A DNA stretch of 64,000 nucleotides. It comes from a phage. Below, one piece after another: positions 2,763 through 64,000 of this stretch; positions within the stretch are counted from its first letter, which is position 1; each line of letters starts with the position of its first letter. The DNA lies in the sequence record PZ386965.1; one strand, given 5' to 3'. The notes under the pieces are model-generated. The model worked only from the letters and a program-made list of their open reading frames with translations, was not told the DNA's origin and did not search any database. The position numbers and the translations under genes were made by a program.

Positions 2763-3071
2763 TTACATAAGAAGCAAACGTTCTACCGGAGTACCATCAA
2801 CAGAAATTACTTTATCAAGGCGGAAAGAACGCCACTGACCTAACTCGGTATCGAATGCTCGAACTGATTCACGAGGTTCATAACGAACTTCTGTTGCCGG
2901 ATTGTTATTTTCATATTTGACTTCAAGTTCATCGCGCGAAGCAAACATAGTGCGTACCTCGCCGTTAGCCTTTTCAAATACAACACAATGAACGCCTACA
3001 GACAGAATAGTTTTAATACGTTCACGAAGAACCATAGTTTCTTGTTCAGTTAAAATCATATTATTCACCAC
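2763..3071 (-). CDS. hypothetical protein (31.1-like by position)
   Basis: ORF track; lies between cd and gene 31. Confidence 0.45.
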   Translation of the reverse strand: MVNNMILTEQETMVLRERIKTILSVGVHCVVFEKANGEVRTMFASRDELEVKYENNNPATEVRYEPRESVRAFDTELGQWRSFRLDKVISVDGTPVERLLLM

Positions 3072-3642
3072 AAAAGTTTCGGATTTGTTCCCAATTCAGA
3101 GAACGAAGATTATTACGAGAGTACTGAATTACTTCAATACCGGCTTGTTTTAGAATGTCTGCCCAATTTTCAGGAGATCTGTCATATAATTCTGCATATA
3201 CAACCTTTTTAATACCTGACTGTGTAATAGCTTTAGTGCAATCAGGACATGGAGAAAGCGTCGTATACAACGTAGCACCTTCAATAGAATTACCTTTACG
3301 AGCTGCAAACAAAATTGCATTCAATTCCGCATGGATTTCATTATTAGCAGACCATGCACTATGAGCGGCCCGATGTTCTTTAGCCAAAACAAAATTATCC
3401 ACCCGTCCAAATGCTGTAGTGCCTTCTTTATGCCCAGCAACGATGACCGGGCTTGGTTTATTCTTCAACCAACCGTTTTCGGATGCATGTTCGCAACAGT
3501 TTGTACCACCTGAAGGAGAGCCATTATAACCTGTAGAAATAATGCGTCCATCTTTTTCAATGACGGCACCAACTTTCCATGAACAACATTTTGATTCTTG
3601 AGAAATCAGATAAGCAATCTGAAGATATGTGCTAGCTTTCAT
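3061..3642 (-). CDS. cd: dCMP deaminase
   Basis: 193 aa with zinc-dependent deaminase motifs HAELNAI and SPCPDC. Confidence 0.9.
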   Translation of the reverse strand: MKASTYLQIAYLISQESKCCSWKVGAVIEKDGRIISTGYNGSPSGGTNCCEHASENGWLKNKPSPVIVAGHKEGTTAFGRVDNFVLAKEHRAAHSAWSANNEIHAELNAILFAARKGNSIEGATLYTTLSPCPDCTKAITQSGIKKVVYAELYDRSPENWADILKQAGIEVIQYSRNNLRSLNWEQIRNFCGE

Positions 3643-4634
3643 TATTGAACCTTATTAATATGAGTTAACAGCTCTTTAGTTTGTTCCCAACTGATGCACG
3701 CATCGGTAACGGAAACGCCATAGGACATATTATCAGAAATTTTTTGATTTCCTTCATGTAGGAATGATTCTATCATAATTCCTTTGACCAAATCATTAGC
3801 TGCTAAATTTTTACCAATACCAATTTGATTGCTATAATGCCCAGCAGCGTTTGCATGGCTACAGTCAACCATTACATAATGATTCAGACCTACGGCCCTT
3901 GCTTTGTTAGAAGCTTCTTGAATATCAGAAGAATGATAGTTCGGGCCATTGGTCCCGCCACGCAATACGATATGCGTATTCTGATTACCTTCAGCTTCAA
4001 CAATGCCTACAGTACCATCGACGTCCATACCCATATACCGATGAGGCCAGGCGGCACTATACATCGCGTCTGTAGCTACTTTAATAGAACCATTGGTTGC
4101 GTTCTTGAAGCCTACGCACATCGGTAGACCTGAAGCAATTTCACGATGTGTCTGACTTTCAGTCGTACGGGCGCCAATAGCAACCCATGAGAAAATACCA
4201 GAAAGATACTTAATCGTGAATGGGTCTAATACTTCAGTTGCTAATGGAAGTCCCATACGTAGAAGTTTACGACACAATGTTCGTGCAACTATAAGACCGT
4301 GGTTCATATCAAAACTTCCGTCAAGATATGGATCATTTACAAGACCTTTCCAACCTACGGTAGTTCGAGGCTTTTCAAAATAAACGCGCATCACTAACAG
4401 AACATTAGGAAGACGAGTTTGAAGTTCAGCCAGACGTTTGCCGTATTCAACAGCAGCAATAGGGTCATGAATTGAACAAGGACCTACAACAATAAGTTTG
4501 CGTGGGTCTTCACCATTCATAATCGAATTAACTTGTTCGCGATGAGAAGCCACTTGTGATGCGTAAGCTTCCGACAAAGGAATAATCTCAGCCAGTTCTT
4601 TTGGAGAAATAAGTTTTCCGACGACAGGTAACAT
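3642..4634 (-). CDS. 3-deoxy-7-phosphoheptulonate (DAHP) synthase, class I (AroG/AroF-like)
   Basis: 330 aa with IVVGPCSIHD, MRVYFEKPRTTVGWKGL, GARTTESQTHRE motifs of AroG-type DAHP synthase; stop overlaps cd start (TAATG). Confidence 0.9.
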   Translation of the reverse strand: MLPVVGKLISPKELAEIIPLSEAYASQVASHREQVNSIMNGEDPRKLIVVGPCSIHDPIAAVEYGKRLAELQTRLPNVLLVMRVYFEKPRTTVGWKGLVNDPYLDGSFDMNHGLIVARTLCRKLLRMGLPLATEVLDPFTIKYLSGIFSWVAIGARTTESQTHREIASGLPMCVGFKNATNGSIKVATDAMYSAAWPHRYMGMDVDGTVGIVEAEGNQNTHIVLRGGTNGPNYHSSDIQEASNKARAVGLNHYVMVDCSHANAAGHYSNQIGIGKNLAANDLVKGIMIESFLHEGNQKISDNMSYGVSVTDACISWEQTKELLTHINKVQ

Positions 4635-4754
4635 AACAATCCTTAGGAGATATAAACAGATTCTGATTCAACAATACCTTTAACCGGATTAGACAGGCTA
4701 AGTTGGTAGTGCTCAGATTTATGACCATTCTCGATAGTAATGAGATAGCTCTCG

Positions 4755-4991
4755 TTATAGTGTTCCATATACTCGAGTTGCTTCAACAAGACCATCACTG
4801 CCTAATTTAAGATTAGTAATTTGGTCACCATCTTTAGGATTTACAATTATGAGAAAAGAACGTGGAGATTCTTGAATAACTCGTAATGTTGCATCCTGGA
4901 AACGTTCAGATACTTTATTAATCAAAGTCTGAGCGAACTCTTTTACTTTAACATGAAATTCTTGAAGCGTGATAGGTTTTTCACTTAACAT
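4755..4991 (-). CDS. hypothetical protein (78 aa)
   Basis: ORF track; same strand and spacing as flanking early genes. Confidence 0.45.
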   Translation of the reverse strand: MLSEKPITLQEFHVKVKEFAQTLINKVSERFQDATLRVIQESPRSFLIIVNPKDGDQITNLKLGSDGLVEATRVYGTL

Positions 4992-61731: not shown

Positions 61732-62280
61732 TTAACGAGCCCATTTGATGATTTCTGTAATCAAACCATTACGTTCGCTTGCATTAAATCCTATAACTTT
61801 GTTAGCACCATCATGATTAAGTAATTGATATGTTTGGATTTTGTTATGAATTGCAAACTCTTCAAAATGTGAAATGACTGTATTAAAACCGAATGAAGAC
61901 AAAGTAATAAGGTCGTCTTCAAAACTTTCAGTCATTTCGTTACGTGTTAAAATAATTGTGAACACATCATGGTTTTGGCAAAGACGAACATAGTCCTGTT
62001 CATAAACGTCAAGAATCGAGTCCGCATCTTGTCGAATACGTCCATAAACCCAGTTACTAATATATCCACGGTCTAACAGATAAATCTTAGTAGGGTCTAA
62101 ATAATTCAACATCGTTTCGAAACAACCAACTTCATTTCGAGACTTAACATCGAAACGTCCATCAACTGTTCGTTTAGGGAAATCAATCTTTACATATCTT
62201 TCACTAATTTCCATTATGTCATTAATGAAAGTTGTTTTACCGGCATTATCCGGGCCATCTACTAAAATAATTTTAGCCAT
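61732..62280 (-). CDS. P-loop NTPase, nucleotide or sugar kinase-like (182 aa)
   Basis: N-terminal Walker A VDGPDNAGKTT; small kinase-like size. Confidence 0.5.
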   Translation of the reverse strand: MAKIILVDGPDNAGKTTFINDIMEISERYVKIDFPKRTVDGRFDVKSRNEVGCFETMLNYLDPTKIYLLDRGYISNWVYGRIRQDADSILDVYEQDYVRLCQNHDVFTIILTRNEMTESFEDDLITLSSFGFNTVISHFEEFAIHNKIQTYQLLNHDGANKVIGFNASERNGLITEIIKWAR

Positions 62281-62281
62281 T

Positions 62282-63181
62282 TTATTCCTCGATTACGACA
62301 TCTTCGTATTTAGGTATATTATACGGCGAAGAAATTAAAGCATTAAAGTAGATGAACTCACCAAGACCTGGATGGAATACTTCTTCAGGATTTTCGAAAT
62401 ATTGAATTTTCGGACGTCCTTTAAGAATTTGATAGTACTCAGTTTTAGTTGGTTTAAAAATTCGAATCAGCGCTTCTTCAGGATACTTATTTCTGTCGAA
62501 GCTATTATTTGGATCGGTTATATAAAGCGCTTGGCCTAATTGAATTGCACATTCAACCACTTGTTCAAAACGATAGCACGGGTCACTAATTCGAAATGGA
62601 TGAAAAATACCATCTAGATGAATAGGAGCCAAATCACCTACAAGACGCTGCATGATGGAAGGACGTATAACTTTCTGCGTTACGATAATCTTATTACCAT
62701 CTGCACCTGCGTTAACCAGCACTTCTTTTTGACGTTCATTCAACACAGTAGTTTGAAGTGAACGATTAACAGACAACATGTCGGTTTTTAAGAATTCATC
62801 AATATAAAAACGTGGTTTATTAGGGTCTGCAGTGATATTGAAATTGAATTCCACATCAAAAGCGCCGCCATAACCAGTGATATCTGTGATTAGAAAATCA
62901 CAATCATAATAATCAATTAATGAATCAACCACAAATTCATTTTCAGTCCAGAAATATTTACGAGTGTTATACGCGTTATCTTTATACCATAATGGAACAA
63001 ACTTAAATTCTGGGAAAAGACGTTCACATTCTTTAATATCAGATGCATTACGTGGATATGTAATCACATCACCCGGATTAGCACGGTGCAAATGAAGTTG
63101 GAAGTTGCCATCCTTAAGGATAGCATACTGTCCAGTTTCATAAGACCGCATACTCAAGATTGGTACGCGGAAAATAGCCAT
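62282..63181 (-). CDS. hypothetical protein (299 aa), candidate modification enzyme
   Basis: ORF track; occupies the uvsX-42 interval where T4 has beta-glucosyltransferase but has no recognisable bgt motifs. Confidence 0.45.
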   Translation of the reverse strand: MAIFRVPILSMRSYETGQYAILKDGNFQLHLHRANPGDVITYPRNASDIKECERLFPEFKFVPLWYKDNAYNTRKYFWTENEFVVDSLIDYYDCDFLITDITGYGGAFDVEFNFNITADPNKPRFYIDEFLKTDMLSVNRSLQTTVLNERQKEVLVNAGADGNKIIVTQKVIRPSIMQRLVGDLAPIHLDGIFHPFRISDPCYRFEQVVECAIQLGQALYITDPNNSFDRNKYPEEALIRIFKPTKTEYYQILKGRPKIQYFENPEEVFHPGLGEFIYFNALISSPYNIPKYEDVVIEE

Positions 63182-63897
63182 TAGTCAAGGAATCCTTTAA
63201 CATAATCAAAATCACGTTCAAACACATGGGCACTTACCATGGTATGAGTATAATCACCAACTTCTACACCGCATTCGTTAGCGATATAATGAAGTAATTT
63301 TCCTTGGAGATAAAAATCCAACTGCATAACAACAGCACAGTTCTGAGAACGCATATGACAGTGGGTATAAAGCTTACCATCACGAATATAATAAGTTACT
63401 GAGTCAGTACATGGATATTCAAGTGTTTCGTCCGAATCAAGCAAAGCCTGATCAGAACTTTCTAGAATTTGGAACACAACTCTTCGAGAGTTAGGTTTTT
63501 CTTTAAGTTCTTTTAGAAGAGTTGGTAATTGGGCCGCAATGCGAGGACCATAGAAAGTGTTGAAGTTCGCCGGCAAAACATCTGATTTTGGTTTAGAAAT
63601 AAATTTAGCGACATTAGGATATGCCTTAAACGCTTCTTCTGCGTTGGTACCACCAGAAATCATAAACTTCCAGAAGTCTTCGGCATATTCATAAGAGATG
63701 CGGTTAATACGTGGGTCGGTCATTTTGAATGATGATGGAGTGTCAACAACTACTGTCATAGACCCAATTTCATTACAACGTCCAATACGAGAATCAGTTA
63801 CGAATTCCGGGTTTTCTAAAATTTCACGATTGACTGCTTTAAACGCGGTTTGAAAATCTGCGGCTTTGATATATTTCATTGTGTTATGTTTTCCCAT
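63181..63897 (-). CDS. 42: thymidylate synthase-family pyrimidine hydroxymethylase (probable dCMP hydroxymethylase)
   Basis: 238 aa; ...SRRVVFQI...YPCTDSVTYYIRDG...MRSQN... parallels the TS active-site architecture seen in td in this window. Confidence 0.6.
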   Translation of the reverse strand: MGKHNTMKYIKAADFQTAFKAVNREILENPEFVTDSRIGRCNEIGSMTVVVDTPSSFKMTDPRINRISYEYAEDFWKFMISGGTNAEEAFKAYPNVAKFISKPKSDVLPANFNTFYGPRIAAQLPTLLKELKEKPNSRRVVFQILESSDQALLDSDETLEYPCTDSVTYYIRDGKLYTHCHMRSQNCAVVMQLDFYLQGKLLHYIANECGVEVGDYTHTMVSAHVFERDFDYVKGFLD

Positions 63898-64000
63898 GTT
63901 TACCTCAATACAATTTATTATATACTCAATTCGTAAAGCTTATTTGAATTTCTTGACAATGTTGATATAACGTAAAGCTTCAGAATCTATACTTCCAAGA

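Follow-up and report, generated by a model that had tools for sequence, protein, structure and literature searches.

An old DAHP synthase gene in a T-even coliphage: altered allosteric site and a possible role in prephenate supply for DNA modification

What use a T-even coliphage makes of an enzyme that feeds the shikimate pathway is the question raised by a gene in the stretch of phage DNA analysed here (64,000 nucleotides, sequence record PZ386965.1; the whole stretch is called the window below). The window belongs to a Mosigvirus, an RB69-like T-even coliphage, and was 99.1% identical to phage vB_EcoM_PhAPEC2 over the tested stretch. The gene is located at positions 3642-4634 on the minus strand, the strand having been left unstated in an earlier, model-made note on this DNA. 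[quoted passage not shown] The existence of the gene is already known, as it is annotated in many GenBank records and catalogued as phrog_5045 in PHROGs. Two points are new here: the loss of the allosteric site throughout the phage clade, as read from aligned sequences, and, as a hypothesis, a tie between the gene and a DNA-modification module whose U32-family protein would use prephenate.

Identity, inhibitor site and age of the enzyme

The assignment of the ORF to the genuine class I-alpha DAHP synthases is essentially certain. The match with Pfam DAHP_synth_1 (PF00793) had an E-value of 5.6e-75 and a score of 252 bits against a cutoff of 25.5, and the scores with NCBIfam TIGR00034 (aroFGH) and PRK12755 were 428.4 and 456 bits against cutoffs of 173.2 and 343, respectively. 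The match with phrog_5045 extended over the full length (9.9e-182, 604 bits), and the best solved relative by sequence was the E. coli AroF structure 6agm (8e-105). The AlphaFold2 model (pLDDT 91, pTM 0.91) resembled the DAHP synthase structures 4hso, 1qr7 and 5cks in Foldseek with TM values of 0.93-0.95, and had their (beta/alpha)8 barrel fold. The motifs quoted in the earlier note, YFEKPRTTVGWKGLVNDP and AIGARTTESQTHREIASG, were found in the ORF, and its description of a full-length AroG/AroF-type enzyme is in agreement with the TIGR00034, Pfam, structure and residue matches.

The residue analysis was performed with an alignment of 28 phage-clade and 98 cellular homologues, in AroG numbering, and with a smaller alignment of 16 sequences containing the E. 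coli isozymes and phage copies. The metal ligands C61, H268, E302 and D326, as well as R92, K97, P98, R99, R165, K186 and R234, were unchanged in all the 28 phage and 98 cellular sequences; T100 was T in every phage copy and T or S in the cellular sequences. The residues binding phosphoenolpyruvate (PEP), R92, K97, G163, A164, R165, K186 and R234, were all invariant columns in the 16-sequence alignment. The alignment check for catalytic residues, which had been proposed in the earlier note, showed that all of them are retained. The KPR(T/S) motif marks the enzymes of the erythrose-4-phosphate (E4P) type, and KANRS marks 3-deoxy-D-manno-octulosonate 8-phosphate (KDO8P) synthase. KPRT, not KANRS, was kept in all phage copies, and the NCBIfam search gave DAHP-synthase families only, with no KdsA/KDO8P synthase. 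With this motif and all the checked catalytic and substrate residues intact, there was no sign of a KDO8P synthase or of an inactive enzyme. The best explanation is an active DAHP synthase, predicted to convert PEP and E4P to DAHP.

The four inhibitor-site positions P150, Q151, S180 and F209 were 92-99% conserved in the cellular sequences (P in 90, Q in 97, S in 96 and F in 96 of 98, respectively). The phage proteins carried I, K, P and Y at these positions in 27, 27, 28 and 28 of the 28 copies, respectively. The N-terminal arm with D6 and D7, which in AroG contact the bound inhibitor, was deleted in all 28 copies; N-terminal and N8K variants of AroF are among the engineered feedback-resistant enzymes. 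The N-terminus had been described as 15-20 residues shorter than that of AroG. The shortening itself was confirmed but its size was only 8-9 residues, since 10 residues precede the conserved Pro19 column in the phage protein and 17-19 in the AroG-type proteins. The phage protein is 20 residues shorter than AroG overall, the remainder of the difference being internal or C-terminal. An intact aromatic amino acid binding site, consisting of the four residues and the arm, was not found in the phage protein, and its scores were below the cutoffs of the NCBIfam equivalog models of AroG (365 versus 568) and AroH (386 versus 463). Judging from the alignment, the inhibitor site is lost in the whole phage clade, which goes beyond the existing annotation.

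In AroG, the substitutions P150L, S180F and F209A/S and changes of Q151 lead to feedback resistance, and S180 binds the main chain of the inhibitor (PMC9529685). The four clade-wide replacements together with the deletion of the arm make feedback insensitivity of the phage enzyme likely, and the suggestion of the earlier note that the enzyme may be deregulated gains support in this respect. The phage changes are located at the same positions as those of the engineered feedback-resistant AroG variants (P150L, S180F, F209A and Q151 variants; PMC9529685). In contrast to the engineered changes, they are natural, combined and long conserved. The phage enzymes are predicted to be natural, evolution-tested feedback-resistant DAHP synthases, which could aid the production of aromatic compounds.

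Compared with E. coli AroF, AroG and AroH, the phage enzyme has the same fold (TM 0.94), about 47-57% identity and the same metal, PEP and E4P residues, and it shares Gly at AroG position 211 with the Tyr-type AroF. It differs from them in the arm shortened by 8-9 residues, in the clade-wide P150I, Q151K, S180P and F209Y replacements, and in belonging to a separate monophyletic clade below the AroG and AroH isozyme cutoffs. A class I DAHP synthase was verified in just one further phage lineage, Aeromonas phage HJ05, whose enzyme carries A150, H151, P180 and V209. The nearest neighbours of this protein in the tree were cellular, which indicates independent acquisition. Because the HJ05 copy was acquired independently and is yet similarly changed, two phage lineages are without the same inhibitor site.

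The GC content at third codon positions (GC3) and the codon adaptation index (CAI, to the phage gene pool) of the gene were 0.293 and 0.667, respectively. The corresponding means of the other 54 window genes were 0.288 and 0.688, and the values of E. coli aroF, aroG and aroH were 0.50-0.57 and 0.44-0.51. The gene was thus phage-like in the codon-usage comparison with the other window genes, a check which had also been proposed earlier. The closest cellular relatives were about 50-55% identical, and the phage proteins were monophyletic in 48 of the 50 bootstrap neighbour-joining trees. Recent capture from a host, or contamination, was ruled out by the phage-like GC3 and CAI, the best cellular identity of about 55% and the monophyletic phage clade.

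The same pseT-cd slot is occupied by the gene in Mosigvirus, Marfavirus, Winklervirus, Bragavirus, Kanagawavirus, Kagamiyamavirus and metagenomic T4-like contigs. The genera that keep the gene intact are only 58-77% identical, and the dN/dS values between genera were 0.14-0.24, similar to those of cd. The within-genus dN/dS was about 0.45, a figure with very few substitutions behind it. All the 213 matches in the phage collection covered at least 80% of the query. The DAHP synthase is therefore an old phage gene under purifying selection. The sliding identity of Mosigviruses showed the ordinary mosaic pattern only and gave no sign that the gene had swept through them.

Co-distribution with the U32 gene and proposed prephenate supply

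RB69-type DNA carries arabinofuranose on 5-hydroxycytosine, as determined by structural analysis; the ThyA-like enzyme gp48 of RB69 makes 5-hydroxy-dCMP using FMN and O2, and the arabinose is derived from ribulose-5-phosphate by phage enzymes (PMC13326640). In the window, the start of the base-modification module is the orthologue of gp48, a thymidylate-synthase homologue at 63181-63897 on the minus strand (Pfam Thymidylat_synt, 1.9e-15; synteny with PhAPEC2 gp041). Two genes away from the ThyA-like gene, PhAPEC2 encodes gp043, the counterpart of RB69 gp50, with a Pfam Peptidase_U32 match of 7.3e-11. The U32 gene is located at L002:4587-5747 in PhAPEC2, and the corresponding place is just beyond window position 64000. 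The U32 protein was 82-89% identical across genera, far above the conservation of its neighbours, and is named only a 'sugar or heterocycle reductase' in the pathway paper (PMC13326640). DAHP synthase, U32, chorismate and prephenate are mentioned neither in that paper nor in the 2018 RB69 paper.

The phage-collection records (50,697 in total) were counted by the first word of the organism name. The DAHP synthase and U32 genes were found in 125 and 137 records of Escherichia phages, 25 and 26 of Klebsiella, 12 and 14 of Shigella, 7 and 7 of Proteus, 6 and 7 of Serratia, 4 and 4 of Enterobacter, and 3 and 3 of Edwardsiella phages, respectively. With Acinetobacter phages, neither a genuine DAHP synthase nor a U32 match was obtained. 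The arabinose genes, encoding the isomerase and the kinase/uridylyltransferase, were distributed more widely, including 57 Acinetobacter and 9 Enterobacter phage records. A link of the DAHP synthase with the arabinose pathway was ruled out, as the distributions differ and RB69 makes arabinosyl DNA without the gene.

In the genera Kanagawavirus, Winklervirus, Marfavirus, Tegunavirus and Kagamiyamavirus, a monofunctional chorismate mutase of 79 amino acids (Pfam CM_2, 2.4e-10) is encoded between the U32 and ThyA-like genes with a 4-nt overlap with each; in Kanagawavirus Entb_45 this region is L015:4989-7092. The mutase was found in 51 records altogether. Entb_45 has the DAHP synthase, U32 and chorismate mutase genes and IME523 of the same genus has none of the three. 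Their absence from IME523 is due to clean indels, which affect two loci apart from each other; the flanking sequences were 80-96% identical to those of Entb_45. In HJ05, a distance of about 3 kb separates the DAHP synthase gene from that of a CmoA-like carboxy-SAM (carboxy-S-adenosylmethionine) synthase (TIGR00740, 7e-35). Combined, U32 and CmoA-like genes occurred in about 0.6% of the records of the collection.

The iron-sulfur proteins of the U32 family hydroxylate their substrates without O2 and need prephenate to do so. [quoted passage not shown] Prephenate is also consumed by the CmoA-type carboxy-SAM synthase (PMC12783734). The base made by the phage corresponds, in DNA, to the product of RlhA, and the route published for the phage has a strict requirement for O2; a U32 protein with prephenate is therefore proposed as an O2-independent route.

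According to this proposal, the DAHP synthase, made together with cd from the early pseT-cd block, would feed carbon into the host shikimate pathway, and this inflow would persist despite abundant Phe, Tyr and Trp and the shut-off of host transcription. The pools of chorismate and prephenate would rise, and the U32 iron-sulfur protein would use prephenate as its donor of oxygen in the hydroxylation of cytosine without O2. This route would run parallel to the FMN/O2 route of the ThyA-like enzyme, as TrhO/TrhP and UbiIHF/UbiUV do. The phage would thereby encode both ends of the supply, a feedback-blind DAHP synthase being joined in many genera by a monofunctional chorismate mutase. An O2-independent route would be useful to phages of facultative anaerobes in the gut. 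The demand was roughly estimated from about 63,000 cytosines per genome and a burst of 100-200 to be several million prephenate molecules per cell if the use is stoichiometric, which by the same rough estimate would be a substantial share of the normal aromatic flux and would be required while the host enzymes are feedback-inhibited and host transcription is shut off.

On these comparative grounds, the chances are about even that the purpose of the gene is a deregulated supply of prephenate for the U32-dependent, O2-independent hydroxylation of cytosine. It is proposed somewhat more tentatively that the enteric T-even phages with 5-hydroxycytosine run two hydroxylation routes, the second, unrecognised one being a U32/prephenate route supplied by the phage itself. 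The suggestion of the earlier note that the gene could boost the flux through the shikimate pathway is probably correct, though not specific enough; the comparative evidence favours prephenate for U32 over aromatic amino acids or sugars.

The likeness with TrhO/TrhP, UbiIHF/UbiUV and RlhA consists in a flavin/O2 hydroxylase (gp48) beside a U32 protein and in a C5-hydroxylated pyrimidine as the product; the sister genera add chorismate mutase and the present phage adds DAHP synthase. Compared with RlhA, TrhP and UbiUV, the phage U32 protein is very divergent and lacks the segment with the canonical cysteine signature. We know of no cellular system with its own DAHP synthase for prephenate-dependent hydroxylation. 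A genome-wide DNA modification that consumes prephenate is also found in the CmoA/CmoX carboxymethylcytosine pathway of Synechococcus phage S-B43, whose authors raise the availability of prephenate as an open question (PMC12783734). In HJ05, a CmoA-like gene is combined with a DAHP synthase gene, which points to a DNA modification of the carboxymethyl type for which the phage supplies prephenate itself. The S-B43 pathway differs from the one proposed here in its chemistry, which is that of carboxy-SAM and not of an oxygen donor, and a DAHP synthase is not reported in S-B43. The literature search gave no paper on a phage DAHP synthase or on a link between prephenate and 5-hydroxycytosine, the primary papers on the HY126 and Serratia/BASEL arabinosyl phages being outside the search.

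The genuine U32 matches came only from phages of Enterobacterales and Shewanella, with none in the 57 phage records of Acinetobacter, a strict aerobe. Enterobacterales and Shewanella are facultative anaerobes, and this host range fits an O2-independent route but is not decisive, as the Dhakaviruses and IME523 have enteric hosts too and yet no U32 gene.

Several results weigh against a prephenate supply for U32. U32 occurs without a DAHP synthase in RB69 and also in at least five natural Mosigviruses (moha, JK42, JK36, mar005P1, ECO111 5-P), and in aerobic culture the RB69 DNA is fully arabinosylated 5-hydroxycytosine. Since RB69 modifies its DNA without the gene, the DAHP synthase is dispensable or auxiliary. 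The ThyA-like enzyme alone is enough for the synthesis of 5-hydroxy-dCMP in E. coli (PMC13326640). DAHP synthase is missing from the Tegunavirus phages and the Thanatos phages of Shewanella, in which both U32 and chorismate mutase are present. No chorismate mutase was detectable in Mosigvirus, where the slot contains an unrelated 79-aa ORF. Much of the co-occurrence of DAHP synthase and U32 could also be explained by common ancestry, leaving only two or three independent events.

The phage U32 protein itself was only 14-23% identical to UbiU, UbiV, TrhP and RlhA, and is without the segment that bears two of the four canonical cluster cysteines, which likewise weakens the case. The equivalents of UbiU C193 and C232 were retained in the alignment, and the PhAPEC2 protein (L002:4590-5747) has an additional C-terminal DFDCANEICGSTCTYCE, corresponding to CX4CX3CX2C, a putative motif that could bind an iron-sulfur cluster.

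If the proposal is true, it would explain how an oxygen-containing DNA base is made by gut phages where O2 is absent, and a role would be assigned to the conserved, unexplained U32 protein of the modification module. The recently discovered chemistry of prephenate as an oxygen donor, so far that of RNA and quinones, would be extended to the DNA of viruses. For the first time, a virus would be seen to take over the shikimate pathway in order to modify DNA, and prephenate oxygen would be used at the DNA level. The source of prephenate at the genome scale, asked for other phage modifications, would be addressed as well. The escape from restriction by modification, which is relevant to phage therapy, could then depend on oxygen and on the aromatic metabolism of the host.

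Alternative explanations for the gene

The main rival explanation is a generic auxiliary metabolic gene, which would provide more chorismate for aromatic amino acids, or for folate and quinones, in the service of phage proteins, and would have no particular tie to the DNA modification. The enzyme is intact and probably feedback-insensitive, the family is classed by PHROGs among the auxiliary metabolic genes, and the gene is far from the modification module and dispensable in several Mosigviruses, all of which would be expected of such a gene; the chorismate mutase could also serve the synthesis of Phe and Tyr. However, no protein match was obtained in any U32-less T-even group, including the Dhakavirus coliphages of the same hosts. 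The loss of the DAHP synthase was correlated with that of U32 and chorismate mutase in Kanagawavirus, the mutase is translationally coupled within the base-hydroxylation module, and HJ05, the sole independent phage lineage with the gene, also has a prephenate consumer. This explanation is considered unlikely, although if the U32 link fails, the gene would be an ordinary, already annotated auxiliary metabolic gene.

It is improbable that the gene is a near-neutral passenger in the plastic T4 cd.1 slot with a small contribution to fitness. Its presence or absence is polymorphic in near-identical Mosigviruses with 13-nt direct repeats flanking it, homing-endonuclease genes are found nearby in Klebsiella phage EI, and the within-genus dN/dS is relatively high with the few substitutions available. 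In contrast, the gene with all its catalytic residues has remained intact across the divergent genera, the between-genus dN/dS is like that of cd, every match in the phage collection covers most of the query, and the codon usage is fully phage-like.

An even smaller chance is given to a role as a sink, by which the enzyme would drain E4P and the non-oxidative pentose-phosphate pathway would be shifted in favour of pentoses, from which nucleotides and UDP-arabinose are made. The gene was absent from the 57 Acinetobacter and from 5 Enterobacter phage records with the isomerase and kinase/uridylyltransferase, and it was present in Klebsiella phages, none of which were among the matches listed for the isomerase; losing PEP along with E4P would also be wasteful.

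The earlier note had speculated that the enzyme could supply a 3-deoxy-sugar acid for the modification pathway; DAHP, or an octulosonate from arabinose-5-phosphate, would then be the precursor of the sugar on the DNA. In favour of this, five-carbon sugar phosphates are weak substrates of E. coli DAHP synthase, DAHP and KDO8P synthases are homologous, and the phage makes arabinose-5-phosphate. This can be dismissed almost entirely, as the solved modification consists only of arabinofuranose on 5-hydroxycytosine (PMC13326640), RB69 makes it without the gene, KPRT is strictly conserved and no KDO8P synthase was given by NCBIfam.

Locus organisation and further observations

The DAHP synthase gene fills the T4 cd.1 slot, between cd.2 and cd, in the co-directional pseT-cd block. 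A Shine-Dalgarno sequence, AAGGA, was read at 4640-4644 (minus strand), 5 nt 5' of the ATG. The TAA stop (3644-3642) shares bases with the ATG of cd (3642-3640), forming TAATG at 3640-3644 on the minus strand. This overlap and the location in the early-gene block with translational coupling to cd had been described in the earlier note and were read in the sequence as stated; a comparable overlap of DAHP synthase and cd is present in a metagenomic relative. The coupled downstream gene, cd, encodes dCMP deaminase at 3061-3642 on the minus strand (Pfam dCMP_cyt_deam_1, 1.7e-26; PhAPEC2 annotation). A promoter and terminator scan around the DAHP synthase gene gave no signal exceeding the shuffled expectation between the gene and its neighbours, and we infer that it is co-transcribed with the neighbours in the pseT-cd block. 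Inside the gene, at about 4139-4110 on the minus strand, a MotA-box-like ATTGCTTCA is followed by TAGGCT at suitable spacing. As a pattern match only, this could be a candidate middle promoter for cd within the DAHP synthase coding sequence.

RB69 has no DAHP synthase, and its cd.2 stop directly overlaps the cd start. In comparison with RB69, an imperfect 13-nt direct repeat was found on the minus strand of the window, the left copy ATAACGAGAGCTA at the cd.2 stop (4746-4758) and the right copy ATAATGAAAGCTA at the DAHP synthase stop and cd start (3633-3645). In RB69, a single copy is present at the cd.2/cd junction (L003:~6252) and the intervening 1113 bp are absent. The same single-copy junction without the gene was found in moha, JK42, JK36, ECO111 5-P and some mar005P1 assemblies, and another mar005p1 record does carry the gene. 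The DAHP synthase segment is thus an insertion/deletion polymorphism among near-identical phages. In Klebsiella phage EI (Marfavirus), homing-endonuclease genes of the Seg-like and MobE-like types lie on either side of the DAHP synthase gene (L004:1481-4548) and could help to move the segment between co-infecting phages. The cd of RB69 (L003:5743-6252) is annotated with 169 amino acids, compared with 193 in the window, and contains small indels near its 3' end, which could be explained by sequencing errors of the sort reported in other genes of RB69.

Next to the thymidylate-synthase homologue, the window contains two further genes of the modification module on the minus strand. The orthologue of RB69 gp46:47 at 62282-63181 is a candidate DNA arabinosyltransferase by its position and PhAPEC2 annotation (role proposed in PMC13326640), and the orthologue of gp45 at 61732-62280 is nucleotide kinase-like (PhAPEC2 comparison; PMC13326640, Table 1). 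The slot between U32 and the ThyA-like gene is filled in Mosigvirus by ORF049 (79 amino acids, phrog_8601; L002:4351-4590 in PhAPEC2), of which only the C-terminal end is in the window, at 63940-64000. No sign of a hidden chorismate mutase was found in ORF049, for which the sequence searches of Pfam, NCBIfam and PDB gave no match and which did not resemble the mutase of Entb_45. In Yersinia phages, ORF049 occurs together with chorismate mutase.

Phage HJ05 has a genome of 79 kb and is not T4-like. In a region of about 5 kb (L007:287-5546), four genes encode the CmoA-like enzyme, a weak terminase-like match, the DAHP synthase with its degenerate allosteric site and, in addition, an Acb2/Tad1-like anti-CBASS sponge.

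Several candidates for further phage DAHP synthases were discarded. Human-faecal 'Bacteriophage sp.' contigs and IMG/VR L076 proved to be bacterial DNA or prophage flanks (aroD, ABC transporter, aroF-tyrA beside a P2-type integrase), the unverified record of Pseudomonas phage Y13 and the Acinetobacter MD-2021a contigs (annotated with aroF_1/aroF_2) look bacterial, and IMG/VR L051 looks eukaryotic-viral. The phage-filed records MT837410, MT838377, OQ572414, CAKLQH02... and AGRM01000002 are bacterial DNA or resemble it, the signs being a contig with aroD, MarR and ABC transporter genes, high-GC overlapping ORFs and a Salmonella genome scaffold. Because such bacterial records are present in the collection, counts of 'phage' auxiliary genes need filtering.

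In the IMG/VR scan with 10-kb flanks, no new bacteriophage lineage was found with DAHP synthase beside U32, chorismate mutase or CmoA. Most of the distant matches of the scan were giant-virus bins. At the loci L037-L097, class I DAHP synthases with 40-48% identity to the phage protein are encoded by dozens of giant-virus metagenome bins and by two contigs, 1.9 and 2.2 Mb in size, and the entry enzymes of the shikimate pathway are apparently common in large eukaryotic viruses.

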